DNA from: Escherichia coli
GTDB taxonomy: Bacteria > Pseudomonadota > Gammaproteobacteria > Enterobacterales > Enterobacteriaceae
Assembly: GCF_029227855.1 (NCBI RefSeq)
Contig: NZ_CP074356.1
Reading direction: 5' to 3' (one strand)
DNA length: 64,000 nt
Shown here: piece by piece, positions 1 to 45,350 of the stretch
Layout: every line of letters starts with the position of its first letter
Numbering within the stretch: position 1 is the first letter of the stretch
Made by a program: the position numbers and the translations under genes
The notes under the pieces: model-generated
The model's database searches: none
Seen by the model: only the letters and a program-made list of their open reading frames with translations
What the model was told of the DNA's origin: nothing

Positions 1-1697
1 TCGCGGTGCACCGTCGTCACCTGACCAAAACGGTCATGGTCATAGCGGGTTACATAACCGGAACAGTCGGTAAAGCTCAGCAACTGACCGTAACGGCTCC
101 ACGTCATGGTTTTCCGGCTGCCGGTGGCATCTTCCGTTGCGCAGGGGAAGTCACTGTGTGGATTATCATAACGGTAGCGGGTGATATCGCCGTCAGGGGC
201 GGTTTCCTGAATCAGACGGCCGGATTCATCATATTCCCGGCGCAATTCCAGCCCGTCAGGCCCGGTGGCTGACGTTAACTGGTTGTGGTGGTTATAGTAA
301 AATGCCGATGCCCTGCCATCCGGTGTGGTGATGCGCGTGATGAGGCCCGTCACCACATCCGGGCTGTACTCAGTCGTCCGGCCTGCGGCATCCGTCTGTG
401 CCTTAAGCCCGCCCACCGCGTCAAACTGACTCTGCGTGACGCTGCCGTCCGCGTGTTCCTTTTTCACCATCCGCTTCAGCCCGCCTTCGCCCTGCGTGTG
501 CAGCACTTCACGGCGGTCCAGACTGTCGGTGATGGTGATGCGGTCTTTCTCATACTGATACGTGTAGCTTAAGCCTGCCGGGTTTAGCTGTTCTGTCACC
601 CGCCCGTCGCTGTCGTAACGGTAACGGATATCCGGCCGGCCCGTGTGACGGTGCGCCACCATCCGGCCCCGGTATTTATCATCGTAAGTAAAGCTGCGCA
701 CCTGTGTATTGCTGCGGTCATACACCGCCGCCAGTTCGCCGCGTGGCGTCCAGCCATAGCGCACCAGCGGCGCGGCAGGTAAATTCTCCGGGTATTCCGG
801 GTCGTGCGTCAGCCACACGGCAGACAGACGGATGCCGTTGTCCCGGCCATATTCGGTGTAACCCGGCAGGGTATCAGGAAAAACGGACGGTTCCGTCCCG
901 CCGGAAGAGGCCTGCTGCCGGGCTTCTTCTGCCCGCTGCGCCTGCGTGGTCAGTACCAGCCGGAAGTGACGCCCGGCACCATCCGTCACGCCGGTGATTT
1001 CGCCGCTGAATTCACCGGCGGCTTCGCGGTGGAACGTCTGTGTGCGCCCGAAGCGGTCCACCAGCCCGGTCAGTACCCGGTACGGCGGCAGCGGCGCGGG
1101 CAGCACCTCATCCGCTTCCGGCACCCGCTCACACCAGCCGAGCAGCCACCACGGCCCCTGCGGACTGTTTGTCGCCAGATAACGATGCGGACTTAAGCGG
1201 AGTTCTTCCGGCAGCGCCTGCCAGAGTGCGGCCAGCCGGTGACCTTCATCCAGTTTCAGGACACCGCCGCGCACCAGCCAGAGTGACTCGCTGCGGCTGT
1301 AACCGTCCTCACCGGGAAACAGGTGCTCAAAATACAGGCTTCTGCCGCCGTTATCACTGAGTATCAGTGTGTTATCGCGCAGCTGTAAGCGGATATCCGC
1401 AGGCATTTTCCAGCCGGGGCCGAGGCTCCCCACCGGCGCGGGCGTTTTTGTCCGGTAACTGCTGTAGGTGCGGGAGAGGATGAACGGCAGCGGGCCGGGC
1501 AGGGCAAGGTCGGTTTCGCCGGGAAGGACCTTCGCGCCGAGCAGCGGATTGACCGGATGGCCGGACGTCACCCCGCCGGGGCACACCGAACAGGCCACGC
1601 CGGTGGGGGCACCGATGCGCACCCCGGCTGAACCCTGGACAATGCTACCGCCATACTGCGTCATGTCGCCCTGACGCGCCGCCGGTTTTCCACTCAT
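1..1697 (-). CDS. rhsC: Rhs-family polymorphic toxin core protein, N-terminal ~565 codons; gene continues beyond window position 1
   Basis: Reverse-complement translation from the ATG at 1697-1695 reads MSGKPAARQGDMTQYGGSIVQGSAGVRIGAPTGVACSVCPGG... in one open frame to the window edge. Matches my recollection of the RhsC N-terminus. Absent from the ORF track because there is no stop codon inside the window. Confidence 0.85.
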   Translation of the reverse strand, partial: MSGKPAARQGDMTQYGGSIVQGSAGVRIGAPTGVACSVCPGGVTSGHPVNPLLGAKVLPGETDLALPGPLPFILSRTYSSYRTKTPAPVGSLGPGWKMPADIRLQLRDNTLILSDNGGRSLYFEHLFPGEDGYSRSESLWLVRGGVLKLDEGHRLAALWQALPEELRLSPHRYLATNSPQGPWWLLGWCERVPEADEVLPAPLPPYRVLTGLVDRFGRTQTFHREAAGEFSGEITGVTDGAGRHFRLVLTTQAQRAEEARQQASSGGTEPSVFPDTLPGYTEYGRDNGIRLSAVWLTHDPEYPENLPAAPLVRYGWTPRGELAAVYDRSNTQVRSFTYDDKYRGRMVAHRHTGRPDIRYRYDSDGRVTEQLNPAGLSYTYQYEKDRITITDSLDRREVLHTQGEGGLKRMVKKEHADGSVTQSQFDAVGGLKAQTDAAGRTTEYSPDVVTGLITRITTPDGRASAFYYNHHNQLTSATGPDGLELRREYDESGRLIQETAPDGDITRYRYDNPHSDFPCATEDATGSRKTMTWSRYGQLLSFTDCSGYVTRYDHDRFGQVTTVHR

Positions 1698-6878: not shown

Positions 6879-9555
6879 CGAACCTTTACGTCCCGACCCC
6901 GATCGTCTGCTGGAACAAACTGCCGCGCCGCATCGGGGGAAGCTGAAAGTTTTCTTCGGTGCCTGCGCAGGCGTCGGAAAGACCTGGGCGATGCTGGCAG
7001 AGGCCCAGCGACTGCGGGCGCAAGGGCTGGATATTGTGGTTGGCGTGGTTGAAACCCACGGGCGGAAAGATACCGCCGCAATGCTGGAAGGGCTGGCTGT
7101 TCTGCCGCCCAAACGCCAGGCGTACCGTGGGCGGCATATCAGCGAGTTTGATCTCGATGCCGCCCTCGCCCGCCGTCCGGCGCTGATCTTAATGGACGAA
7201 CTGGCGCACAGTAATGCGCCAGGTTCTCGTCATCCTAAACGCTGGCAGGACATCGAAGAACTGCTGGAAGCGGGCATTGATGTTTTCACTACCGTCAACG
7301 TTCAGCATCTGGAAAGCCTGAATGATGTGGTCAGTGGCGTCACCGGAATTCAGGTACGAGAAACCGTGCCCGATCCTTTTTTCGATGCCGCCGACGACGT
7401 GGTGCTGGTGGACTTGCCCCCGGACGATCTGCGTCAACGGCTGAAAGAAGGTAAAGTCTATATTGCCGGGCAGGCGGAACGCGCCATTGAACATTTTTTT
7501 CGTAAAGGTAATCTGATCGCCCTGCGCGAATTGGCACTGCGCCGTACTGCCGATCGCGTAGATGAGCAAATGCGCGCCTGGCGGGGGCATCCTGGCGAAG
7601 AGAAAGTCTGGCACACGCGCGACGCGATCCTTTTATGCATCGGCCATAACACTGGTAGTGAGAAACTGGTCCGCGCGGCGGCGCGGCTGGCGTCACGGCT
7701 GGGTAGCGTCTGGCACGCGGTGTATGTTGAAACCCCTACCCTGCATCGCTTACCGGAGAAAAAACGTCGGGCAATTCTCAGCGCCTTACGTCTGGCGCAG
7801 GAGCTGGGCGCAGAGACGGCAACACTTTCTGATCCAGCGGAAGAGAAAGCGGTAGTGCGTTATGCCCGTGAACATAATCTCGGCAAGATTATTCTCGGTC
7901 GCCCAGCCTCGCGCCGCTGGTGGCGTCGGGAAACGTTTGCTGACCGACTGGCGCGCATCGCCCCCGATCTCGATCAGGTGCTGGTCGCGCTTGATGAACC
8001 ACCCGCTCGCACGATTAACAACGCGCCGGATAGCCGCTCTTTTAAAGACAAGTGGCGGGTACAGATTCAGGGATGCGTGGTTGCCGCCGCGTTATGCGCC
8101 GTTATCACCTTAATTGCCATGCAGTGGCTGATGGCGTTTGATGCCGCCAACCTGGTGATGCTGTATCTGCTTGGCGTGGTGGTGGTGGCACTGTTTTATG
8201 GGCGCTGGCCTTCGGTGGTCGCCACCGTCATTAATGTGGTGAGTTTCGATCTCTTTTTTATCGCCCCACGCGGCACGCTTGCCGTCTCTGATGTGCAATA
8301 TCTGCTGACCTTCGCGGTGATGTTAACCGTCGGGCTGGTGATCGGGAACCTTACTGCGGGCGTGCGTTATCAGGCGCGGGTAGCCCGTTACCGCGAGCAA
8401 CGCACACGGCACTTATATGAAATGTCGAAAGCTCTGGCGGTGGGCCGCAGTCCGCAGGACATCGCCGCCACCAGCGAACAGTTTATTGCCTCCACGTTTC
8501 ATGCCCGCAGTCAGGTGCTGTTACCCGATGACAACGGTAAATTGCAGCCGTTAACACATCCGCAAGGAATGACCCCGTGGGACGATGCCATCGCGCAGTG
8601 GAGTTTTGATAAAGGCCTGCCTGCGGGCGCGGGCACCGACACGTTACCCGGTGTACCGTACCAGATTTTGCCGCTAAAAAGCGGCGAGAAAACCTACGGA
8701 CTGGTGGTGGTGGAACCGGGGAATCTGCGCCAGTTGATGATCCCGGAACAGCAGCGCCTGCTGGAGACATTTACGTTGTTAGTCGCCAATGCCCTTGAGC
8801 GGCTGACACTGACCGCCAGCGAAGAACAGGCGCGGATGGCAAGCGAACGTGAACAGATCCGCAACGCCCTGCTGGCGGCGCTTTCGCATGATTTACGCAC
8901 TCCGCTCACGGTGCTGTTCGGTCAGGCAGAAATCTTAACGCTCGATCTGGCGAGCGAAGGATCGCCCCACGCCCGCCAGGCCAGCGAGATTCGTCAGCAT
9001 GTGCTGAACACCACCCGACTGGTGAATAATCTACTGGATATGGCACGAATTCAGTCCGGCGGCTTTAATTTGAAGAAAGAGTGGTTAACGCTGGAAGAAG
9101 TGGTCGGCAGCGCGCTGCAAATGCTGGAACCGGGTTTATCGTCGACCATCAATCTTTCTCTGCCAGAACCGCTGACCTTAATCCACGTTGACGGGCCACT
9201 CTTTGAACGGGTGCTGATTAATCTGCTGGAGAACGCGGTGAAATACGCGGGGGCGCAGGCCGAAATTGGTATCAATGCCCACGTTGAGGGCGAAAATCTA
9301 CAACTGGATGTCTGGGATAACGGCCCCGGTCTTCCACCAGGCCAGGAGCAGACGATATTTGATAAGTTTGCTCGCGGGAATAAAGAGTCGGCGGTACCGG
9401 GTGTAGGGCTTGGGTTGGCAATTTGTCGGGCGATAGTGGATGTACACGGCGGCACCATTACCGCATTCAACCGACCGGAAGGTGGTGCCTGTTTTCGTGT
9501 TACACTTCCCCAGCAAACAGCCCCTGAACTTGAAGAATTTCATGAGGATATGTGA
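6871..9555 (+). CDS. kdpD: Sensor histidine kinase KdpD (894 aa)
   Basis: ATG at 6871 inside ORF 6838..9555 gives [16 protein letters not shown]... (894 aa as in K-12); C-terminal HisKA/HATPase region; 5' end overlaps kdpC stop. Confidence 0.95.
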
Positions 9556-10229
9556 CAAACGTTCTGATTGTTGAAGATGAACAGGCTATTCGTCGCTTTC
9601 TGCGCACGGCGCTGGAGGGCGACGGGATGCGCGTCTATGAGGCCGAAACGCTGCAACGCGGCTTGCTGGAAGCGGCTACCCGTAAGCCAGATTTGATTAT
9701 TCTCGATCTCGGCCTGCCCGATGGTGATGGGATTGAGTTTATCCGCGACCTGCGCCAGTGGAGCGCAGTGCCAGTGATTGTGCTTTCCGCACGCAGCGAA
9801 GAGAGCGACAAAATCGCCGCGCTGGATGCCGGAGCGGATGATTACCTGAGTAAGCCGTTTGGCATTGGCGAATTGCAGGCCCGTCTGCGCGTCGCTTTAC
9901 GCCGCCACTCCGCCACCACCGCGCCCGATCCGCTGGTGAAATTTTCCGATGTTACCGTCGATTTAGCAGCTCGTGTGATCCATCGCGGTGAGGAAGAGGT
10001 GCATCTCACCCCGATTGAGTTCCGCCTGCTGGCGGTGCTGCTGAATAACGCCGGGAAAGTGCTCACCCAGCGCCAGCTCCTTAACCAAGTGTGGGGGCCA
10101 AACGCGGTCGAACACAGTCATTATTTGCGTATTTATATGGGACATCTGCGACAAAAACTGGAGCAAGATCCCGCCCGCCCCCGCCACTTCATTACTGAAA
10201 CCGGTATTGGGTATCGGTTTATGCTTTAG
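9552..10229 (+). CDS. kdpE: Response regulator KdpE (225 aa)
   Basis: ORF track 225 aa [17 protein letters not shown]... OmpR-family; start overlaps kdpD stop (ATGA). Confidence 0.95.
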   Translation: MTNVLIVEDEQAIRRFLRTALEGDGMRVYEAETLQRGLLEAATRKPDLIILDLGLPDGDGIEFIRDLRQWSAVPVIVLSARSEESDKIAALDAGADDYLSKPFGIGELQARLRVALRRHSATTAPDPLVKFSDVTVDLAARVIHRGEEEVHLTPIEFRLLAVLLNNAGKVLTQRQLLNQVWGPNAVEHSHYLRIYMGHLRQKLEQDPARPRHFITETGIGYRFML

Positions 10230-10242
10230 GCGGTTAAATGCT

Positions 10243-10328
10243 GGATCCGGCATGAACGCCTTATCCGACCTACACATCGTCCCGTAGGCATGATAAGACG
10301 CGTCAGCGTCGCATCAGGCATGGCACTC
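10243..10328. repeat. REP/BIME-type palindromic repeats in the kdpE-ybfP spacer
   Basis: ggatccggcatgaacgccttatccgacctaca and gtaggcatgataagacgcgtcagcgtcgcatcaggca are typical REP units. Confidence 0.65.
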
Positions 10329-10340
10329 ATCGCGATATGT

Positions 10341-10835
10341 TTAATGCGTATTTATCTGTTTCAACTCTTGCTGGCATTTTTCTGACTGGCAGCGTCGCAA
10401 CTCGATAATCCCGACATGCATCATCGAGCCAAAAAATCCGCTTTCGCTGACATAATCCTCATTAACAATCGGTCGAGTGCCAGGCTTGCCCTGGCAAACC
10501 CGCATAAAAAATGAGGTGTAGCACTGCCAGCCACGATTTAAACTGCTCTTTTCTTGTGGTGACATATCGTGAAGATAAGTAAGTTCTTTTTCGTTCCCGC
10601 CTGACAACTGCCAGCGGCGGGTATTATCAGGTAAGTTATCGCCACGGCAATTTGTCTTACACCGGGAAGGCGCAATATTTACCGCAATGCTACCCGTTAA
10701 TCCTCTGGTTTTATCTTTAGGGGTCAGTAACCAGTCACCAGCTAATGATGATTGTTCAGGTTGGGCGCATGCTGTCAGCAGTAGTGTGGCGGTAATTAAT
10801 GCCACTCTGACGACCAGACTCCTTTTGGTCTTCAT
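10341..10835 (-). CDS. ybfP: Lipoprotein YbfP (about 164 aa)
   Basis: ORF 10341..10886; likely start at internal MKTKRSLVVRVALITATLLLTAC (signal peptide with lipobox LTAC); matches recalled YbfP. Confidence 0.75.
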   Translation of the reverse strand: MKTKRSLVVRVALITATLLLTACAQPEQSSLAGDWLLTPKDKTRGLTGSIAVNIAPSRCKTNCRGDNLPDNTRRWQLSGGNEKELTYLHDMSPQEKSSLNRGWQCYTSFFMRVCQGKPGTRPIVNEDYVSESGFFGSMMHVGIIELRRCQSEKCQQELKQINTH

Positions 10836-16094: not shown

Positions 16095-16812
16095 AATAAA
16101 TATCCTCCGGCATAGCCGGAGGTTTTTCAAATGCGCCTATAAGGCTCTCTTACCAGCCGCGCCCTAACAGGCGCACACGATCTGACATTTGCATCCAACT
16201 TCGTTACTTACGGCCCGTAAACGGGCTGCCCGGATAGGGAATCGATAACTGCTCTCCCATTTTATCCTCTTCAAGCTGGTGCTTTATGTAATCCTGTATC
16301 TTCGCCGTGTTCTTACCCACCGTATCGACGTAGTACCCTCTGCACCAGAACTCCCTGTTCCTGTATTTGAATTTCAAATCACCAAACTGCTCGTAAAGCA
16401 TCAGACTGCTTTTCCCTTTCAGATATCCCATAAAGCCGGATACGCTCATTTTGGGCGGGATCTCCACAAGCATATGGATATGATCTGCACAGCATTCAGC
16501 TTCCAGAATCCGTACACTTTTCCACTCACACAGCTTTCTCAAAATACTGCCTATTGCTCTACGCTTCTCTCTGTAGAACACCTGTCTTCGGTATTTTGGC
16601 GCAAAAACTATGTGATATTTACAGTTCCATCGGGTGTGCGCTAAGCTCTTTTCGTTCCCCATTGGGACCCCCTTTTGATTTCTTGTTTGACACTTGCAGT
16701 TGCCAGACCGCAAGGTGTTTTAACAAATCAAAAGGGGTTTTAATAACTGGCTTAAAGCTGAAAGCTTTCCGGAACCCCCAGCCTAGCTGGGGGTTTTCTG
16801 TGCACAAGAAAA
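16095..16812 (-). mobile_element. IS200: IS200 insertion sequence (about 0.71 kb; IS200/IS605 family), boundaries +/- 15 bp
   Basis: Contains the 152-aa HUH/Y1 transposase gene, a perfect subterminal palindrome cccccagc-cta-gctggggg (16775-16793) upstream of tnpA, and a second hairpin cctccggc-ata-gccggagg (16104-16122) near the other end. The fur-chiQ spacer is about 0.7 kb longer than I recall for K-12. Confidence 0.85.
16204..16662 (-). CDS. tnpA: IS200 transposase TnpA (152 aa)
   Basis: ORF 16204..16713; start at MGNEKSLAHTRWNCKYHIVFAPKYRR...; HUH motif HIHMLVEI and catalytic-Tyr region YYVDTVG. Confidence 0.92.
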   Translation of the reverse strand: MGNEKSLAHTRWNCKYHIVFAPKYRRQVFYREKRRAIGSILRKLCEWKSVRILEAECCADHIHMLVEIPPKMSVSGFMGYLKGKSSLMLYEQFGDLKFKYRNREFWCRGYYVDTVGKNTAKIQDYIKHQLEEDKMGEQLSIPYPGSPFTGRK

Positions 16813-19063: not shown

Positions 19064-20728
19064 TTACTCGCCTACTTTCGCCCAGGTATCACGCAGCCCA
19101 ACGGTGCGATTAAATACCGGTTTTTCCGCCGTAGAATGGCGGCTGTCGAGGCAGAAATAACCTTCACGCTCAAACTGGAATGCTTTACCCGCTACCGCGT
19201 CTTTCAGAGACGGTTCAGCAAAGCCCTGTTTGATCACCAGCGATTCCGGGTTAATCACCGACAGGAAATCATCCGCAGCACCTGGGTTCGGCACGCTGAA
19301 CAGACGATCGTACAGGCGGATTTCAACCGGCAGCGCATGTGCCGCGCTCACCCAGTGGATAACACCTTTCACTTTACGACCATCTGCCGGATCTTTGCTT
19401 AAGGTGTCGGCGTCATAAGTACAGAAGATGGTGGTGATATTGCCTTCGGCATCTTTCTCCACGCGTTCTGCCTTAATGACGTAAGCATTACGCAGACGCA
19501 CTTCTTTACCCAGCACCAGACGCTTGTACTGCTTGTTAGCTTCTTCGCGGAAATCGGCGCGATCGATCCAAATCTCACCGCTAAACGGCACCTGGCGGCT
19601 GCCCATTTCCGGTTTGTTCGGATGGTTCGGCATAGTGACCATTTCGCCTTCGCCCTGATAGTTTTCGATAACCAGTTTCACCGGATCGATAACCGCCATT
19701 GCGCGCGGCGCATTTTCGTTGAGATCTTCACGGATGCAGGATTCCAGCGACGCCATCTCAATGGTGTTGTCCTGCTTGGTCACGCCGATGCGTTTGCAGA
19801 ACTCACGAATAGAAGCCGCAGTGTAACCACGACGACGCAGACCGGAAATGGTCGGCATACGCGGGTCATCCCAGCCTTCAACGTGCTTGTCGGTCACCAG
19901 TAGGTTCAGCTTACGCTTGGACATCACAGTGTATTCCAGATTCAGGCGCGAGAATTCGTACTGGCGCGGGTGAACAGGAATGGTGATGTTGTCCAGCACC
20001 CAGTCGTACAGGCGACGGTTGTCCTGGAACTCAAGCGTACACAGAGAGTGCGTAATACCTTCCAGCGCATCGCTGATGCAATGGGTGAAGTCGTACATCG
20101 GGTAGATGCACCACTTGTTGCCAGTCTGGTGGTGTTCAGCAAATTTAATGCGGTACAGCACCGGATCGCGCATTACGATAAATGGCGACGCCATGTCGAT
20201 TTTCGCACGCAGGCAGGCTTTACCTTCTTCAAAACCACCGGTACGCATTTTTTCGAACAGCGCCAGGTTCTCTTCAACGCTGCGGTCGCGGTACGGGCTG
20301 TTTTTACCCGGCTGCGTCAGGGTGCCGCGGTATTCGCGGATCTGTTCCGGTGTCAGTTCATCAACGTACGCCAGGCCTTTATTGATCAGTTCGATCGCAT
20401 AGGCGTGGAGCTGATCAAAATAATCGGAGGAGTAACGGACGTTACCAGACCAGTGAAAACCTAACCACTCAACGTCGTTTTTGATCGACTCAACATACTC
20501 GATATCTTCTTTTACCGGGTTAGTGTCGTCGAAACGCAGGTTGCACTGGCCTTTATAGTCCTGGGCGATCCCGAAGTTCAGGCAGATAGATTTCGCATGG
20601 CCAATATGCAGATAGCCATTCGGCTCCGGCGGGAAACGGGTGTGTACTGTGGTGTGCTTACCACTGGCCAGATCTTCATCGATGATCTGACGAATAAAGT
20701 TAGTCGGGCGGGCTTCTGCCTCACTCAT
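19064..20728 (-). CDS. glnS: Glutaminyl-tRNA synthetase (554 aa)
   Basis: ORF track 554 aa [47 protein letters not shown]... with HIGH and VMSKR motifs. Confidence 0.97.
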
Positions 20729-27503: not shown

Positions 27504-29168
27504 ATGTGTTCAATTTTTGGCGTATTCGATATCAAAACAGACGCAGTTGAGCTGCGCAAGAAAGCACTCGAGCTGTCACGCCTGATGCGTCATCGTGGCC
27601 CGGACTGGTCCGGTATTTATGCCAGCGATAACGCCATTCTCGCCCACGAACGTCTGTCCATTGTTGACGTTAACGCGGGGGCGCAACCTCTCTACAACCA
27701 ACAAAAAACCCACGTGCTGGCAGTAAACGGTGAAATCTACAACCACCAGGCATTGCGCGCTGAATATGGCGATCGTTACCAGTTCCAGACCGGGTCTGAC
27801 TGTGAAGTTATCCTCGCGCTGTATCAGGAAAAAGGGCCGGAATTTCTTGACGACTTGCAGGGCATGTTTGCCTTTGCCCTGTACGACAGCGAAAAAGATG
27901 CCTACCTGATTGGTCGCGACCATCTGGGGATCATCCCACTGTATATGGGCTATGACGAACATGGTCAGCTGTATGTGGCCTCAGAAATGAAAGCCCTGGT
28001 GCCGGTATGCCGCACGATTAAAGAGTTCCCGGCGGGGAGCTATTTGTGGAGTCAGGACGGCGAAATCCGTTCTTATTATCACCGCGACTGGTTCGACTTT
28101 GATGCAGTGAAAGATAACGTGACCGACAAAAACGAGCTGCGTCAGGCACTGGAAGATTCCGTTAAAAGCCATCTGATGTCTGATGTGCCTTACGGTGTGC
28201 TGCTTTCTGGTGGTCTGGATTCCTCAATTATTTCCGCGATCACCAAGAAATACGCCGCCCGTCGCGTGGAAGATCAGGAACGTTCTGAAGCCTGGTGGCC
28301 GCAGTTACACTCCTTTGCTGTAGGTCTGCCGGGTTCACCAGATCTGAAAGCAGCCCAGGAAGTGGCAAACCATCTGGGTACGGTGCATCACGAAATTCAC
28401 TTCACTGTACAGGAAGGTCTGGACGCCATCCGCGACGTGATTTACCACATCGAAACCTATGATGTGACCACTATTCGCGCTTCAACACCGATGTATTTAA
28501 TGTCGCGTAAGATCAAAGCGATGGGCATTAAAATGGTGCTGTCCGGTGAAGGTTCTGATGAAGTGTTTGGCGGTTATCTTTACTTCCACAAAGCACCGAA
28601 TGCCAAAGAACTGCATGAAGAGACGGTGCGTAAACTGCTGGCCCTGCATATGTATGACTGCGCGCGTGCCAACAAAGCGATGTCAGCCTGGGGCGTGGAA
28701 GCACGCGTTCCGTTCCTCGACAAAAAATTCCTTGATGTGGCGATGCGTATTAACCCACAGGATAAAATGTGCGGTAACGGCAAGATGGAAAAACACATCC
28801 TGCGTGAATGTTTTGAGTCATACCTGCCTGCAAGTGTTGCCTGGCGGCAGAAAGAGCAGTTCTCCGATGGCGTCGGTTACAGTTGGATCGACACCCTGAA
28901 AGAAGTGGCGGCGCAGCAGGTTTCTGATCAACAGCTGGAAACTGCCCGCTTCCGCTTCCCGTACAACACGCCGACGTCCAAAGAAGCGTATCTGTACCGG
29001 GAGATCTTTGAAGAACTGTTCCCGCTTCCGAGCGCCGCTGAGTGCGTGCCGGGCGGCCCTTCCGTCGCGTGTTCTTCCGCTAAAGCGATCGAATGGGATG
29101 AAGCGTTCAAAAAAATGGACGATCCATCTGGTCGTGCGGTTGGTGTTCACCAGTCGGCATATAAATAA
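27504..29168 (+). CDS. asnB: Asparagine synthetase B, glutamine-hydrolysing (554 aa)
   Basis: ORF 27423..29168; start at MCSIFGVFDIKTDAVELRKKALELSRLMRHRGPDWSGIY... (N-terminal Cys nucleophile after Met) gives 554 aa. Confidence 0.96.
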   Translation: MCSIFGVFDIKTDAVELRKKALELSRLMRHRGPDWSGIYASDNAILAHERLSIVDVNAGAQPLYNQQKTHVLAVNGEIYNHQALRAEYGDRYQFQTGSDCEVILALYQEKGPEFLDDLQGMFAFALYDSEKDAYLIGRDHLGIIPLYMGYDEHGQLYVASEMKALVPVCRTIKEFPAGSYLWSQDGEIRSYYHRDWFDFDAVKDNVTDKNELRQALEDSVKSHLMSDVPYGVLLSGGLDSSIISAITKKYAARRVEDQERSEAWWPQLHSFAVGLPGSPDLKAAQEVANHLGTVHHEIHFTVQEGLDAIRDVIYHIETYDVTTIRASTPMYLMSRKIKAMGIKMVLSGEGSDEVFGGYLYFHKAPNAKELHEETVRKLLALHMYDCARANKAMSAWGVEARVPFLDKKFLDVAMRINPQDKMCGNGKMEKHILRECFESYLPASVAWRQKEQFSDGVGYSWIDTLKEVAAQQVSDQQLETARFRFPYNTPTSKEAYLYREIFEELFPLPSAAECVPGGPSVACSSAKAIEWDEAFKKMDDPSGRAVGVHQSAYK

Positions 29169-29179
29169 GACGTATAATA

Positions 29180-29207
29180 TTGCCCCGGAGAAATCCGGGG
29201 CAATTTC
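29180..29207 (+). terminator. asnB intrinsic terminator
   Basis: ttgccccgga-gaaa-tccggggcaa followed by tttc. Confidence 0.65.
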
Positions 29208-29479
29208 AGTTACTGGGGCGCTTGTTGATTCTGATATGCAGTAAGGAAATGTTCCGGGTTTGCCACATCGCTGTTTGACAATTCATCACTGTAGGCCAGT
29301 ACTTCATAGATTAATTTCCCACCACTATTGTTGAATTCCGAATTTCATCCTGTATGACAAAAGAATGGCTGTAGGGTGGGGAAAAAACACAAAGTAAACA
29401 ATAATTGACGAATATAGCGCCATGCTGTTCGCAACCTAACCAAACAGTCACTTTCGAGCAATTTTCCTTGAAAAAGAGG

Positions 29480-29515
29480 TTGACGCTGCAAGGCTCTATA
29501 CGCATAATGCGCCCC
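29480..29515 (+). promoter_or_regulatory. Promoter of the metT tRNA operon (-35 TTGACG, 17-bp spacer, -10 CATAAT, GC-rich discriminator)
   Basis: ttgacg at 29480-29485, cataat at 29503-29508, then gcgcccc; A-rich UP-like stretch upstream; 34 bp before the first tRNA. Confidence 0.6.
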
Positions 29516-29548
29516 GCAACGCCGATAAGGTATCGCGAAAAAAAAGAT

Positions 29549-29625
29549 GGCTACGTAGCTCAGTTGGTTAGAGCACATCACTCATAATGATGGGGTCACA
29601 GGTTCGAATCCCGTCGTAGCCACCA
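29549..29625 (+). tRNA. metT: tRNA-Met (CAU), elongator
   Basis: ggctacgtagctcagttggttagagcacatcactcataatgatggggtcacaggttcgaatcccgtcgtagccacca; cloverleaf with CAU anticodon and CCA end. Confidence 0.95.
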
Positions 29626-29633
29626 TCTTTTTT

Positions 29634-29718
29634 GCGGGAGTGGCGAAATTGGTAGACGCACCAGATTTAGGTTCTGGCGCCGCAAGGTGTGCGAGTTCAA
29701 GTCTCGCCTCCCGCACCA
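29634..29718 (+). tRNA. leuW: tRNA-Leu (UAG)
   Basis: gcgggagtggcgaaattggtagacgcaccagatttaggttctggcg...cccgcacca; long variable arm, anticodon UAG. Confidence 0.93.
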
Positions 29719-29741
29719 TTCACCAGAAAGCGTTGTACGGA

Positions 29742-29816
29742 TGGGGTATCGCCAAGCGGTAAGGCACCGGTTTTTGATACCGGCATTCCCTGGTTCGAAT
29801 CCAGGTACCCCAGCCA
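29742..29816 (+). tRNA. glnU: tRNA-Gln (UUG)
   Basis: tggggtatcgccaagcggtaaggcaccggtttttgataccggcattccctggttcgaatccaggtaccccagcca. Confidence 0.93.
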
Positions 29817-29850
29817 TCTTCTTCGAGTAAGCGGTTCACCGCCCGGTTAT

Positions 29851-29925
29851 TGGGGTATCGCCAAGCGGTAAGGCACCGGTTTTTGATACCGGCATTCCCT
29901 GGTTCGAATCCAGGTACCCCAGCCA
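29851..29925 (+). tRNA. glnW: tRNA-Gln (UUG), second copy
   Basis: Identical 75-nt sequence to glnU. Confidence 0.93.
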
Positions 29926-29940
29926 TCGAAGAAACAATCT

Positions 29941-30017
29941 GGCTACGTAGCTCAGTTGGTTAGAGCACATCACTCATAATGATGGGGTCACAGGTTCGAA
30001 TCCCGTCGTAGCCACCA
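29941..30017 (+). tRNA. metU: tRNA-Met (CAU), elongator, second copy
   Basis: Identical 77-nt sequence to metT. Confidence 0.95.
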
Positions 30018-30064
30018 AATTCTGAATGTGTCGAATATGTTCGGCAAATTCAAAAACCAATTTG

Positions 30065-30139
30065 TTGGGGTATCGCCAAGCGGTAAGGCACCGGATTCTG
30101 ATTCCGGCATTCCGAGGTTCGAATCCTCGTACCCCAGCC
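30065..30139 (+). tRNA. glnV: tRNA-Gln (CUG)
   Basis: tggggtatcgccaagcggtaaggcaccggattctgattccggcattccgaggttcgaatcctcgtaccccagcca. Confidence 0.93.
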
Positions 30140-30176
30140 AATTTATTCAAGACGCTGACCTTGTAAGTGCACCCAG

Positions 30177-30251
30177 TTGGGGTATCGCCAAGCGGTAAGG
30201 CACCGGATTCTGATTCCGGCATTCCGAGGTTCGAATCCTCGTACCCCAGCC
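30177..30251 (+). tRNA. glnX: tRNA-Gln (CUG), second copy
   Basis: Identical 75-nt sequence to glnV. Confidence 0.93.
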
Positions 30252-30254
30252 ACA

Positions 30255-30285
30255 TTAAAAAAGCTCGCTTCGGCGAGCTTTTTGC
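30255..30285 (+). terminator. tRNA operon intrinsic terminator
   Basis: aaaaaagctcgc-ttcg-gcgagcttttt. Confidence 0.8.
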
Positions 30286-30304
30286 TTTTCTGCGTATATT
30301 CAAT

Positions 30305-30400
30305 GTCGAATGCGATGTTGACACGTCTTATCCTTCAAAGTCGGATGCGACGCTGACGCGTCTTATCCGACCTACGGTTGGCATGCATCCGGCAATGTTG
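30305..30400. repeat. REP/BIME repeats between the tRNA operon and ubiF
   Basis: gacacgtcttatccttcaaagtcggatgcgacgctgacgcgtcttatccgacctac... and gcatgcatccggca. Confidence 0.6.
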
Positions 30401-30405
30401 TAAGG

Positions 30406-31581
30406 CTACAACCCTAACGCATATTTCAGCGCCTGACGTTTCAACACGCCAGCACGCTCCGCCGCCATCAAACCAAGATTACGCACAAAACGCAGTGGCG
30501 GGAGATTATTGCTGAATCCGGCATAAAACAGATCCATACCGCTCTGCATAATGAAGTTATCCGCCATGCGCCGCATCTGGTAACGCTTGAGGATCGGATA
30601 ACTGGCCCACGCTTCGCCATAGCTGCGAGCGTTGACCAGAACGTCAATCAGGGCATCGACATCACGATAACCAAGATTCACTCCCTGCCCCGCCAGCGGA
30701 TGGATGGTATGCGCGGCATCGCCCACCAGAGCAAGCCCTGGTTGCACATACTGCAACGCATGGCGACGTATCAGCGGAAACGCACCAGCGGCAAGCGGTG
30801 TCACGTAACCCAGACGCGACGGGAAATGCTTCGCGATTTCCGCCTGTAACTGCGCCATATTCATATTCTGCAACTGGCGAATGCGTGCCGGAGAGTCATA
30901 CCACACCAGCGATGCCCAGTTATCAAACAACGGCAGAAACGCACGAGGTCCATCCGGGGTAAATTGCTGCCAGGTGCTGTCGCCGGGATCGTTCTCACAC
31001 TGTACGCTAATCAACATACACGACTGTGCATACTGCCAGGCATGAACGCCAATTCCCGCCATCTGCCGCACCTGCGAATTTGCGCCGTCGGCACCAATCA
31101 CCAGCTTCGCGAGGATCGTTTCACCGCCCTTCAGTTCCAGCTCCTGAAGATCATTATGGCGATGCAGTGCAATCAGCGAGGTTGGCACACGTAACGTTAC
31201 TTTCGGATGCGCTTCCAGCGCCTGCCACAACGCCTGTTGCAGGACAGTGTTTTCCACCATGTAGCCAAGCAACGGTAGCTTAAGTTCAGCGGCGTCAAAC
31301 ACGACATGCGCCGTTTCCCACTCCCACGTTTCTAGTCTGCGGTAAGGATGGCAACGCATAGCCTGTACTGCATCCCAGACCCCTAACCCTTTAAGCAATG
31401 ATACCGAAGCCGCGCTGATCGCCGAGATCCGCACGTCCGGTTGGCTGTCAGCGACAAACGGCGCAGGTTCTGCGTGCTCGATCACCGTTACCGCAAATCC
31501 GTGCTGTGCCAGCCCCAGCGCCAGTGCGCCGCCGACCATTCCTCCGCCGACAATGGCAATTTCCGTTGGTTGATTTGTCAT
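30406..31581 (-). CDS. ubiF: 2-octaprenyl-3-methyl-6-methoxy-1,4-benzoquinol hydroxylase (391 aa)
   Basis: ORF 30406..31587 (MTMTNQPTEIAIVGGGMVGGALALGLAQHGF...); FAD-binding GGGMVG motif; start placed at the third codon to match the 391-aa K-12 length (31587 is an alternative). Confidence 0.92.
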   Translation of the reverse strand: MTNQPTEIAIVGGGMVGGALALGLAQHGFAVTVIEHAEPAPFVADSQPDVRISAISAASVSLLKGLGVWDAVQAMRCHPYRRLETWEWETAHVVFDAAELKLPLLGYMVENTVLQQALWQALEAHPKVTLRVPTSLIALHRHNDLQELELKGGETILAKLVIGADGANSQVRQMAGIGVHAWQYAQSCMLISVQCENDPGDSTWQQFTPDGPRAFLPLFDNWASLVWYDSPARIRQLQNMNMAQLQAEIAKHFPSRLGYVTPLAAGAFPLIRRHALQYVQPGLALVGDAAHTIHPLAGQGVNLGYRDVDALIDVLVNARSYGEAWASYPILKRYQMRRMADNFIMQSGMDLFYAGFSNNLPPLRFVRNLGLMAAERAGVLKRQALKYALGL

Positions 31582-31726: not shown

Positions 31727-33151
31727 ATGACCAAAAAACTCCATATTAAAACCTGGGGCTGTCAGATGAACGAGTACGATTCATCGAAGATGGCCGATCT
31801 GCTGGATGCCACCCACGGCTATCAACTGACCGACGTGGCGGAAGAAGCGGATGTGCTGCTGCTGAACACCTGCTCAATCCGCGAGAAGGCTCAGGAAAAA
31901 GTCTTCCATCAGTTGGGTCGCTGGAAACTGTTAAAAGAGAAGAATCCAGACCTGATTATCGGCGTCGGCGGCTGCGTGGCATCGCAAGAAGGCGAGCACA
32001 TTCGCCAGCGCGCCCACTATGTCGATATTATTTTTGGGCCGCAAACGCTGCACCGTCTGCCGGAGATGATCAACTCCGTGCGCGGCGACCGCAGCCCGGT
32101 TGTAGATATCAGCTTCCCGGAAATCGAGAAGTTTGACCGTCTGCCGGAACCGCGTGCCGAAGGGCCGACCGCGTTTGTCTCCATCATGGAAGGCTGCAAT
32201 AAATATTGCACCTACTGCGTAGTGCCTTACACCCGTGGTGAAGAGGTAAGCCGTCCGTCCGACGATATTCTGTTTGAGATCGCCCAGCTTGCGGCTCAGG
32301 GCGTGCGTGAAGTCAACCTGCTCGGTCAGAACGTGAACGCCTGGCGTGGTGAAAACTACGACGGCACCACCGGATCGTTTGCCGATCTGCTGCGTCTGGT
32401 TGCTGCGATCGACGGGATCGATCGTATTCGCTTTACCACCAGCCATCCGATCGAATTCACCGACGATATCATCGAAGTGTACCGCGACACGCCGGAGCTG
32501 GTGAGCTTCCTGCATCTGCCGGTACAGAGCGGTTCCGATCGCATTCTGAACCTGATGGGACGTACCCATACAGCGCTGGAGTACAAAGCGATCATCCGTA
32601 AACTGCGTGCGGCGCGTCCGGATATTCAGATCAGTTCTGACTTCATCGTTGGCTTCCCTGGCGAAACCACCGAAGACTTCGAGAAAACGATGAAGCTGAT
32701 TGCCGACGTCAATTTCGACATGAGCTACAGCTTTATCTTCTCTGCACGTCCGGGTACGCCAGCCGCCGATATGGTTGATGATGTTCCGGAAGAAGAGAAG
32801 AAGCAGCGTCTGTATATTCTACAAGAACGTATTAATCAGCAAGCGATGGCATGGAGCCGCCGGATGCTCGGCACCACCCAGCGTATTCTGGTAGAAGGTA
32901 CATCGCGTAAGAGCATCATGGAGCTTTCCGGTCGCACTGAAAATAACCGCGTGGTCAACTTCGAGGGCACACCGGATATGATCGGTAAATTCGTCGATGT
33001 AGAAATTACCGACGTCTACCCGAACTCTCTGCGCGGTAAAGTGGTGCGAACTGAAGATGAAATGGGTCTGCGCGTGGCAGAAACACCGGAATCGGTCATT
33101 GCCCGTACCCGCAAAGAAAACGACCTTGGCGTGGGTTATTATCAGCCATAA
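31727..33151 (+). CDS. miaB: tRNA-i6A37 methylthiotransferase, radical SAM (474 aa)
   Basis: ORF track 474 aa [26 protein letters not shown]... with radical-SAM CxxxCxxC (CNKYCTYC). Confidence 0.96.
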
Positions 33152-42767: not shown

Positions 42768-45350
42768 ATGCAAGAGCAATACCGCCCGGAAGAGATAGAA
42801 TCCAAAGTACAGCTTCATTGGGATGAGAAGCGCACATTTGAAGTAACCGAAGACGAGAGCAAAGAGAAGTATTACTGCCTGTCTATGCTTCCCTATCCTT
42901 CTGGTCGACTACACATGGGCCACGTACGTAACTACACCATTGGTGACGTGATCGCCCGCTACCAGCGTATGCTGGGCAAAAACGTCCTGCAGCCGATCGG
43001 CTGGGACGCGTTTGGTCTGCCTGCGGAAGGCGCGGCGGTGAAAAACAACACCGCACCGGCACCGTGGACGTACGACAACATCGCGTACATGAAAAACCAG
43101 CTCAAAATGCTGGGCTTTGGTTATGACTGGAGCCGCGAGCTGGCAACCTGTACACCGGAATACTACCGTTGGGAACAGAAATTCTTCACCGAGCTGTATA
43201 AAAAAGGCCTGGTATATAAGAAGACTTCTGCAGTCAACTGGTGCCCGAACGACCAGACCGTACTGGCGAACGAACAAGTTATCGACGGCTGCTGCTGGCG
43301 CTGCGATACCAAAGTTGAGCGTAAAGAGATCCCGCAATGGTTTATCAAAATCACCGCTTACGCTGACGAGCTGCTCAACGATCTGGATAAACTGGATCAC
43401 TGGCCAGACACCGTTAAAACCATGCAGCGTAACTGGATCGGTCGTTCCGAAGGCGTGGAAATCACCTTCAACGTTAACGACTATGACAACACGCTGACCG
43501 TTTACACTACCCGCCCGGACACCTTTATGGGTTGTACCTACCTGGCGGTAGCGGCGGGTCATCCGCTGGCGCAGAAAGCGGCGGAAAATAATCCTGAACT
43601 GGCGGCCTTTATTGACGAATGCCGTAACACCAAAGTTGCCGAAGCTGAAATGGCAACGATGGAGAAAAAAGGCGTCGATACTGGCTTTAAAGCGGTTCAC
43701 CCATTAACGGGCGAAGAAATTCCCGTTTGGGCAGCAAACTTCGTATTGATGGAGTACGGCACGGGCGCAGTTATGGCGGTTCCGGGTCACGACCAGCGCG
43801 ACTACGAGTTTGCCTCTAAATACGGCCTGAACATCAAACCGGTTATCCTGGCAGCTGACGGCTCTGAGCCAGATCTTTCTCAGCAAGCCCTGACTGAAAA
43901 AGGCGTTCTGTTCAACTCTGGCGAGTTCAACGGTCTTGACCATGAAGCGGCCTTCAACGCTATCGCCGATAAACTGACTGCGATGGGCGTTGGCGAGCGT
44001 AAAGTGAACTACCGTCTGCGCGACTGGGGTGTTTCCCGTCAACGTTACTGGGGCGCGCCGATTCCGATGGTGACGCTGGAAGACGGTACCGTAATGCCGA
44101 CCCCGGACGACCAGCTGCCGGTGATCCTGCCGGAAGATGTGGTGATGGACGGCATTACCAGCCCGATTAAAGCAGATCCGGAGTGGGCAAAAACTACCGT
44201 TAACGGTATGCCAGCACTGCGTGAAACCGACACTTTCGACACCTTTATGGAGTCCTCCTGGTACTATGCGCGCTACACTTGCCCGGAGTACAAAGAAGGT
44301 ATGCTGGATTCCAAAGCGGCTAACTACTGGCTGCCGGTGGATATCTACATTGGTGGTATCGAACACGCCATTATGCACCTGCTCTACTTCCGCTTCTTCC
44401 ACAAACTGATGCGTGATGCAGGTATGGTGAACTCTGACGAACCAGCGAAACAGTTGCTGTGTCAGGGTATGGTGCTGGCAGATGCCTTCTACTATGTTGG
44501 CGAAAACGGCGAACGTAACTGGGTTTCCCCGGTTGATGCTATCGTTGAACGTGACGAGAAAGGCCGTATCGTGAAAGCGAAAGATGCGGCTGGCCATGAA
44601 CTGGTTTATACCGGCATGAGCAAAATGTCCAAGTCGAAGAACAACGGTATCGACCCGCAGGTGATGGTTGAACGTTACGGCGCGGACACCGTTCGTCTGT
44701 TTATGATGTTTGCTTCTCCGGCTGATATGACTCTCGAATGGCAGGAATCCGGCGTGGAAGGGGCTAACCGCTTCCTGAAACGTGTCTGGAAACTGGTTTA
44801 CGAGCACACAGCGAAAGGTGATGTTGCGGCACTGAACGTTGATGCGCTGACTGAAGATCAGAAAGCGCTGCGTCGCGATGTGCATAAAACGATCGCTAAA
44901 GTGACCGATGATATCGGCCGTCGTCAGACCTTCAACACCGCAATTGCGGCGATTATGGAGCTGATGAACAAACTGGCGAAAGCACCGACCGATGGCGAGC
45001 AGGACCGCGCCCTGATGCAGGAAGCGCTGCTGGCGGTAGTCCGTATGCTTAACCCGTTCACCCCGCACATCTGCTTCACGCTGTGGCAGGAACTGAAAGG
45101 CGAAGGCGATATCGACAACGCACCGTGGCCGGTTGCTGACGAAAAAGCGATGGTGGAAGACTCCACGCTGGTCGTGGTGCAGGTTAACGGTAAAGTCCGT
45201 GCAAAAATCACCGTTCCGGTGGACGCAACGGAAGAACAGGTTCGCGAACGTGCTGGCCAGGAACATCTGGTAGCAAAATATCTTGATGGCGTTACCGTGC
45301 GTAAAGTGATTTACGTACCCGGTAAACTCCTCAATCTGGTCGTTGGCTAA
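42768..45350 (+). CDS. leuS: Leucyl-tRNA synthetase (860 aa)
   Basis: ORF 42627..45350; start at [26 protein letters not shown]...; HMGH and KMSKS motifs present. Confidence 0.97.

Follow-up and report, generated by a model that had tools for sequence, protein, structure and literature searches.

The window, a stretch of 64,000 nt of Escherichia coli DNA in which all positions are counted from the first letter, carries a row of tRNA genes of which most are present in two copies. This raised the question of which operon is found here, how its promoter is controlled and whether its repeated genes are stable. The interval under study, 29480-30285, extends exactly from the -35 hexamer through the end of the terminator stem. 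We concluded that the locus is the standard E. coli metT tRNA operon, since it shows every defining feature that can be tested on sequence. In the reading that we favor, to which we assign a probability of roughly 0.95, this operon has its usual form with two Gln(UUG) and two Gln(CUG) genes (2+2), carries wild-type anticodons, is transcribed from one sigma-70 promoter into one precursor, and undergoes occasional recombination between its repeats.

Gene Content and Identity of the Locus

Application of ARAGORN to the whole 64-kb window placed seven tRNA genes on the plus strand between 29549 and 30252 (Table 1) and detected no tRNA beyond these seven on either strand. The Rfam tRNA model scored the seven genes with 57.6-71.1 bits, compared to a gathering score of 29, and no other family was above the Rfam threshold within 28500-31500. 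A permissive Rfam scan gave further matches below threshold, all of which were rejected as chance matches: Plastid-ycf2 on the strand opposite to the tRNAs, naRNA4 at the REP elements, and rsmX, isrB and istR at the terminator.

The order Met-Leu(UAG)-Gln(UUG)-Gln(UUG)-Met-Gln(CUG)-Gln(CUG), which the initial annotation had read from the letters, was confirmed by ARAGORN, by the Rfam tRNA model and by the annotation of K-12, and the tRNA search also returned the anticodons that had been given. All seven genes are present as exact strings in the K-12 genome (NC_000913.3), where they are named metT to glnX, and the comparison to K-12 that had been suggested as a check showed the same gene order, the same anticodons and identical sequences of all seven tRNAs. 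We considered that the tRNAs with CAU anticodon might be initiator or Ile2 tRNAs, which was ruled out by their identity to metT and metU of K-12. These two genes are termed elongator tRNA-Met genes (PMC6265465).

The CCA end is encoded in all seven genes. The duplicate copies had been described as identical, and indeed no difference was found within any of the pairs metT/metU, glnU/glnW and glnV/glnX (100% identity in all three). Identity within the pairs is lost within 0-2 nt of the gene boundaries; the repeat hence consists of the tRNA alone and excludes the spacers. Between the two Gln isoacceptors, 7 of 75 positions are different, among them the anticodon wobble base. Four of the differences represent two adjacent base pairs that are changed on both sides (CT/AG to GA/TC), and base pairing is therefore preserved.

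According to ARAGORN, the Gln anticodons in the window are wild type, and consequently the strain is without a suppressor of the supE type (CUA) or the supB type (UUA). The allele supE44 is, as we take from established genetics, an allele of glnV.

The setting of the operon is also that of K-12: it is flanked upstream by asnB, in the same orientation, and downstream by the convergent ubiF gene. The region 29300-30450 was 100% identical to one complete E. coli genome, JNEC-KY178, and was found in 5,425 of 5,426 complete E. coli genomes; in 5,264 of the 5,426, at least 80% of it was present in one place. In the matched genomes this stretch is annotated with one tRNA-Leu, two tRNA-Met and four tRNA-Gln genes and with ubiF.

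The K-12 operon has the same promoter, with identical sequence from upstream of the -35 hexamer to metT, and the same terminator. Differences to K-12 were restricted to the following: the T-run between metT and leuW is one T shorter (6 T here, 7 in K-12), the metU-glnV spacer shows a single substitution and an indel of 1 nt, the glnV-glnX spacer has a single substitution (G here, T in K-12), and a few further changes lie past the terminator and within the REP elements. All of these are neutral-looking. Those features of the operon that need experiments, apart from ppGpp/DksA control, are documented for K-12, which is identical in promoter, tRNA genes and terminator.

Table 1. Features of the metT operon and its upstream boundary (positions in the window; all on the plus strand).
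Feature	Position	Strand	Remarks
asnB terminator hairpin, upstream unit boundary	29179-29201	+	11 nt past the asnB stop (29166-29168)
A-tract AAAAAGAGG, candidate proximal UP-element subsite	29471-29479	+	adjoins -35 on the upstream side
-35 hexamer TTGACG	29480-29485	+	5 of 6 consensus positions; promoter scan
-10 hexamer CATAAT	29503-29508	+	5 of 6 consensus positions; 17 bp past -35; promoter scan
GC-rich discriminator GCGCCCC	29509-29515	+	directly after -10
5' leader, RNase P-removed	29516-29548	+	about 33 nt; predicted start
metT, elongator tRNA-Met(CAU)	29549-29625	+	77 nt, CCA encoded; identical to K-12 metT
leuW, tRNA-Leu(UAG)	29634-29718	+	85 nt; only single-copy gene of the operon
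glnU, tRNA-Gln(UUG)	29742-29816	+	75 nt
glnW, tRNA-Gln(UUG)	29851-29925	+	identical to glnU; 34-nt spacer between
metU, tRNA-Met(CAU)	29941-30017	+	identical to metT
glnV, tRNA-Gln(CUG), supE locus	30066-30140	+	anticodon wild-type CTG
glnX, tRNA-Gln(CUG)	30178-30252	+	identical to glnV; 37-nt spacer between
Intrinsic terminator AAAAAGCUCGC-UUCG-GCGAGCUUUUU, then GCUUUUCUG	30258-30292	+	terminator scan and fold

The Core Promoter Is Conserved across Enterobacterales

The promoter scan revealed TTGACG-17-CATAAT at 29480-29508, which matches the consensus at 10 of 12 positions and is directly followed by GCGCCCCGC; an extended -10 TG was absent from this promoter. Promoter matches with 9 of 12 positions occurred twice in the region compared to 2.1 expected, which is no better than chance. 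The scan match alone is therefore insufficient, and it is the conservation across Enterobacterales that lifts the promoter call above chance.

We retrieved 120 loci from different species of Enterobacterales by a pattern anchored on the metT-leuW junction and counted conservation among the 116 distinct upstream sequences of these loci. The spacer length of 17 bp was found in all 116 sequences, TTGACG at -35 in 113, CATAAT at -10 in 114, and GCGCCCCGC after the -10 hexamer in 112. Within the same set, the sequence of the promoter spacer was merely 20-70% conserved, the A-tract bases 29471-29475 reached at least 90%, and conservation became patchy upstream of about -60. Conserved motifs around a spacer of variable sequence are the pattern of a functional core promoter. 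The near-consensus -35 hexamer, the 17-bp spacer and the GC-rich discriminator that had been noted from the letters were all supported by the promoter scan and by this conservation. From its position and composition the A-tract is a candidate UP element. We propose that this one strong sigma-70 promoter, with the A-tract just upstream of -35, would drive the whole unit.

Transcription Start and Leader

Transcription probably starts at the G at 29516, as judged from the analogy to tyrT and from a published primer design. The start site of tyrT, on which the analogy is based, is established knowledge. A start at about 29516 agrees with the metT precursor that was used in vitro, the native sequence of which begins at the base matching 29515 (PMC3985628), and also with a metT species of ~125 nt with unprocessed 5' end that accumulates in an RNase P mutant (PMC2241853).

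A mildly unexpected observation was that conservation reaches past the discriminator into the part of the leader that is discarded (29516-29530). The first 15 nt of the leader, GCAACGCCGATAAGG, are highly conserved, and the 22 bases past the -10 hexamer, GCGCCCCGCAACGCCGATAAGG (29509-29530), showed at least 90% conservation among the 116 Enterobacterales upstream sequences. Part of this block, namely GCGCCCCGC and CCGATAAGG, is common to tyrT. RNA folding gave no significant structure for the leader (-4.8 kcal/mol, z = -0.9), and we dropped RNA structure as the cause of the conservation on account of this z value. The first transcribed bases might instead constitute a distinct control element of some tRNA promoters that acts at the DNA level and lies beyond the classical discriminator. 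We regard this as doubtful; if true, the element might affect, for instance, promoter escape, the choice of the start site or the lifetime of the open complex.

Proposed Stringent-Type Control of the metT Promoter

The initial annotation had described the promoter as typical of ppGpp/DksA control. Features that are hallmarks of promoters of the rrn P1/tyrT type are present: the GC-rich discriminator, near-consensus hexamers (10 of 12 positions) and an A/T-rich upstream element that would function as an UP element. The tyrT promoter is a classic stringent promoter, for which Fis sites and a response to ppGpp are documented. Like the metT promoter, the K-12 tyrT promoter drives a tRNA transcript; it has the same nine bases after the -10 hexamer (GCGCCCCGC) and, a few bases beyond the discriminator, also CCGATAAGG among the first transcribed bases. 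The two promoters differ in the -35 hexamer (TTGACG in metT, TTTACA in tyrT), in the -10 hexamer (CATAAT in metT, TATGAT in tyrT) and in the spacer, which has 17 bp in metT and 16 bp in tyrT.

These features and the identity of the discriminator to that of tyrT suggest that the metT promoter is controlled by ppGpp/DksA. The short GC-rich discriminator would lead to a short-lived open complex, and the output would drop at elevated ppGpp/DksA or upon relaxation of supercoiling, in the same way as at tyrT and further stable-RNA promoters. The spacer of rrnB P1 has 16 bp. Since the 17-bp spacer of the metT promoter is unlike this, the strength of its response to ppGpp is uncertain.

A link to growth rate could also be exerted mainly by supercoiling, by the upstream A-tract or Fis, and by NTP sensing, with only a minor direct effect of ppGpp/DksA, so that "stringent-type" would describe a mere resemblance in sequence. 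The A-tract upstream of -35 is conserved, and a search of the open-access literature returned no direct ppGpp/DksA test of the metT promoter. G/C-rich discriminators confer supercoiling sensitivity via similar sequence determinants, and the induction of ppGpp itself relaxes DNA (PMC8422995). The discriminator is, however, base for base that of tyrT, which serves as the model promoter with a G/C-rich discriminator and is modelled among promoters that are stringent as well as supercoiling-sensitive; several stable-RNA promoters are both strongly sensitive to supercoiling and stringently controlled (PMC8422995). The two mechanisms are, moreover, compatible with each other. We therefore consider a mainly indirect control to be unlikely, and control by ppGpp/DksA remains the reading that we prefer for this promoter.

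Copy Number of the Gln Genes

The identical 75-nt Gln repeats lie 109-112 bp apart, and unequal homologous recombination between them would occasionally lead to the gain or loss of a copy. We counted variants by the presence and multiplicity of the inter-copy spacers in 5,426 complete E. coli genomes and used the leuW-glnU junction as single-copy control. The control junction was found in 5,412 of the 5,426 genomes, with 22 extra places, so the background of genomes without it was 0.26%. The glnU-glnW spacer was present in 5,337 genomes (40 extra places), and about 1.6% of the 5,426 genomes were without a second Gln(UUG) gene beside the first. For the glnV-glnX spacer we used the count from sensitive blastn, 5,267 genomes with 33 extra places; megablast detected only 5,196 genomes, an under-count due to the polymorphism of this spacer. 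About 2.9% of the genomes were without the second Gln(CUG) gene. Extra copies were seen in about 0.5-0.7% of the 5,426 genomes. About 95% of the complete E. coli genomes retain the 2+2 form and roughly 5% deviate, where all variant counts refer to genomes and not to independent events and may include some tandem-repeat assembly errors.

We had also tried synthetic queries spanning the recombinant junctions. Their counts at 80% coverage (2,063, 5,413 and 5,396) were meaningless because the search joined two overlapping wild-type pieces into one place; examples of variants were still obtained. In strain WP4-W18-ESBL-08 one repeat unit has been cleanly lost, which leaves a single CUG gene. Origami2-DE3 carries a single UUG gene, and three CUG genes in tandem were found in about 28 genomes, Rosetta2-DE3 and K-12 GM4792 among them.

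Between species, copy number varied further. Salmonella, Citrobacter, Enterobacter, Yersinia, Photorhabdus, Pantoea and others share the scaffold Met-Leu-Gln(UUG)n-Met-Gln(CUG)m and a nearly invariant core promoter, and among the 120 species loci n was 1-4 and m was 1-3. The 2+2 form was the commonest (43 of 120 loci), followed by 2+1 (33 of 120) and 1+2 (8 of 120); others differ further. In rare forms among the 120 loci the second Met gene was absent or the Met-Leu-Gln segment was duplicated.

The apparent variants within E. coli might mostly be artefacts of assembly, in which tandem repeats were collapsed or expanded. With a length of 75 nt and a period of 109-112 bp, the repeats are short; they are also identical and would easily collapse in assemblies based on short reads; the variants are also rare (0.5-3%). 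Yet all genomes that we searched are of the level "complete", the variants recur in related records and in the independent laboratory strains Origami2-DE3, Rosetta2-DE3 and K-12 GM4792, and fixed copy-number differences are the norm between species. An origin of most variants from assembly is thus improbable, and we concluded that the Gln repeats do recombine, at a low rate. The tandem copies had initially been called hotspots for recombination and copy-number change. The change in copy number is real, both within E. coli and between species, but "hotspot" overstates the variation, since about 95% of the complete E. coli genomes keep 2+2.

Boundaries of the Transcription Unit

The operon ends in a GC-rich hairpin with a directly adjoining U-tract, as is characteristic of an intrinsic (Rho-independent) terminator. 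The terminator scan gave a stem of 11 pairs (30258-30283) and a T-rich tail. The fold has -17.9 kcal/mol (z = -3.95), only 1 of 200 shuffled sequences was as stable, and the sequence is identical in K-12. This verified the strong terminator that had been claimed for the end of the operon. The GC core is preceded by A-runs and followed by T-runs, and the reverse strand folds equally well, with -18.7 kcal/mol, and is then followed by UUUUUUAAUG. The terminator thus looks bidirectional and may also serve the convergent ubiF gene.

At the upstream side, the unit is bounded by a hairpin behind asnB; the segment 29166-29215 folds at -22.1 kcal/mol (z = -5.64), and the end of asnB at this position is also annotated in a near-identical genome record. 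Read-through from asnB, which would make the unit not fully autonomous, is very improbable. In its favor, asnB has the same orientation and its end is just 312 bp before the -35 hexamer, and its hairpin has a poor U-tract (AAUUUCAGUU) and was not called by the terminator scan. Against it, this hairpin is very stable, some strains have an extra gene on the opposite strand within the intergenic region and keep the operon, and band I of K-12 was deduced to comprise the seven tRNAs with no longer species described (PMC2241853).

Transcript, Processing and Essentiality

We therefore retain a single promoter and a single transcript as the preferred reading. The predicted precursor would have a length of about 770 nt, with its start at about 29516 and its end at the intrinsic terminator. 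In K-12, Northern blots revealed a full-length transcript that holds all seven tRNAs and the terminator and is also detected by a terminator probe (PMC2241853). The terminator is removed first, by RNase E with RNase G as back-up, and RNase P next separates the tRNAs and makes the mature 5' ends (PMC2241853). RNase E cuts the precursor efficiently in vitro, independently of a 5' monophosphate, and in vivo RNase E sites were detected solely downstream of metU (PMC3985628). Such sites fit the long A/U-rich spacers between metU and glnV (48 nt) and between glnV and glnX (37 nt). Besides this cleavage by RNase E downstream of metU, processing in K-12 includes trimming by 3' exonucleases as far as the encoded CCA ends, and the precursor from the window would be processed likewise.

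The operon provides the whole supply of the cell of elongator tRNA-Met, tRNA-Leu(UAG) and both tRNA-Gln isoacceptors, as it holds every gene for these tRNAs (PMC11480407, PMC6265465). It is one of the tRNA transcription units that resisted deletion, and metTU, leuW, glnUW and glnVX are predicted to be essential (PMC11480407). A deletion of the whole operon was obtained solely with plasmid support (PMC6265465).

Implications

The metT operon is already known; it was sequenced decades ago, its processing pathway and essentiality are published, and in the window it is a textbook locus in its ordinary state, so that our analysis has little weight as a discovery. For the source strain it shows a normal gene set for tRNA-Met, tRNA-Leu(UAG) and tRNA-Gln with no suppressor allele. 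For the species it puts a number on the deviation in Gln copy number, with roughly 5% of the complete E. coli genomes not being 2+2. For the Enterobacterales it shows that the core promoter is very strongly conserved throughout the order.

Sequence and Strain Variation around the metT Operon

The tyrT promoter of K-12 (tyrT region L124, 1245-1275, minus strand) carries GCGCCCCGC and CCGATAAGG 3' of the -10 hexamer, and both are common to the metT promoter. The metT block with this tyrT-like sequence showed at least 90% conservation in the metT lineage throughout the Enterobacterales. The conserved block reaches into the metT leader, for which folding revealed no significant RNA structure.

Two homopolymeric runs varied in length between strains. 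In the metT-leuW spacer (29626-29633) the window has a run of 6 T; K-12 carries 7 T at this place and WP4-W18-ESBL-08 carries 8. The A-run in the metT leader (29537-29544) is 8 A long in both the window and K-12, and 9 A long in WP4-W18-ESBL-08. In some E. coli strains the asnB-metT intergenic region harbors an additional 438-nt gene on the opposite strand, annotated as 'hypothetical protein'. The gene found in WP4-W18-ESBL-08 is absent from both the window and K-12.

Downstream of the operon, two REP-like palindromic elements were found in like orientation. The folding energy of this region on the ubiF strand is -37.1 kcal/mol (z = -3.7); its match to naRNA4 in Rfam was sub-threshold (30.9 bits vs. 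59.5).

Features in and around the metT operon
Feature	Position	Strand	Location
RHS element core protein gene	1-1697	-	window begins inside gene
ybfA, then kdpFABCDE operon			after RHS gene at window start
kdpE-ybfP junction	10230-10340		kdpE 9552-10229; ybfP-like gene 10341-10835
Insertion, ~705 bp	16101-16805		between fur terminator and chiQ
glnS (Gln-tRNA ligase)	19064-20728	-	~9 kb upstream of metT operon
Extra 438-nt gene	L003 (WP4-W18-ESBL-08 locus) 77-514	opposite	corresponds to window ~29282
metT block with tyrT-like sequence	29509-29530		downstream of -10 hexamer
Two REP-like elements	30304-30372		operon terminator to ubiF stop codon
miaB (tRNA-modification gene)	31727-33151	+	adjoins ubiF
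leuS (Leu-tRNA ligase)	42768-45350	+	~12.5 kb downstream of metT operon

Neighboring Genes, an Insertion and a Missing Segment

Three genes for partners of the operon tRNAs, glnS, miaB and leuS, are located nearby on the chromosome. In K-12, too, glnS is near the metT operon, at a distance of about 8 kb. The positions of these three genes were taken from the annotation of a near-identical record with coordinates shifted by +9299; for the RHS gene, ybfA and kdpFABCDE, annotation coordinates were shifted by -711.

The insertion between fur and chiQ is absent in K-12 and also in the otherwise near-identical genome of JNEC-KY178. It is an IS200-family element: an ORF on its minus strand (16204-16713) encodes an IS200-type Y1 transposase (PF01797, E = 3.8e-38). 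The window therefore comes from a strain other than JNEC-KY178.

The segment ybfG-ybfI-potE-speF-speFL encodes an inducible ornithine decarboxylase and a putrescine transporter. This segment of about 5 kb is present in K-12 but not in the window, where REP-like sequence was found at the kdpE-ybfP junction. The direct kdpE-ybfP-pgm junction occurred in only 248 of the 5,426 complete E. coli genomes.

Gln tRNA Copy Number and Cluster Forms

Outside E. coli, the cluster took several other forms. In Budvicia (L024 and L065) it reads Met-Leu-Gln-Gln-Met-Leu-Gln, the stretch that separates the Met repeats having been duplicated. The cluster of an Arsenophonus endosymbiont (L019) is Met-Leu-Lys, and Serratia silvae (L040) has four Gln(UUG) genes in tandem.

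Within E. coli, three common laboratory strains depart from the usual arrangement of two Gln(UUG) and two Gln(CUG) genes. Origami2-DE3 has only one Gln(UUG) gene, and Rosetta2-DE3 and K-12 GM4792 both have three Gln(CUG) genes in tandem. Such altered Gln sets in laboratory hosts could be relevant to work on suppressors or codon usage.
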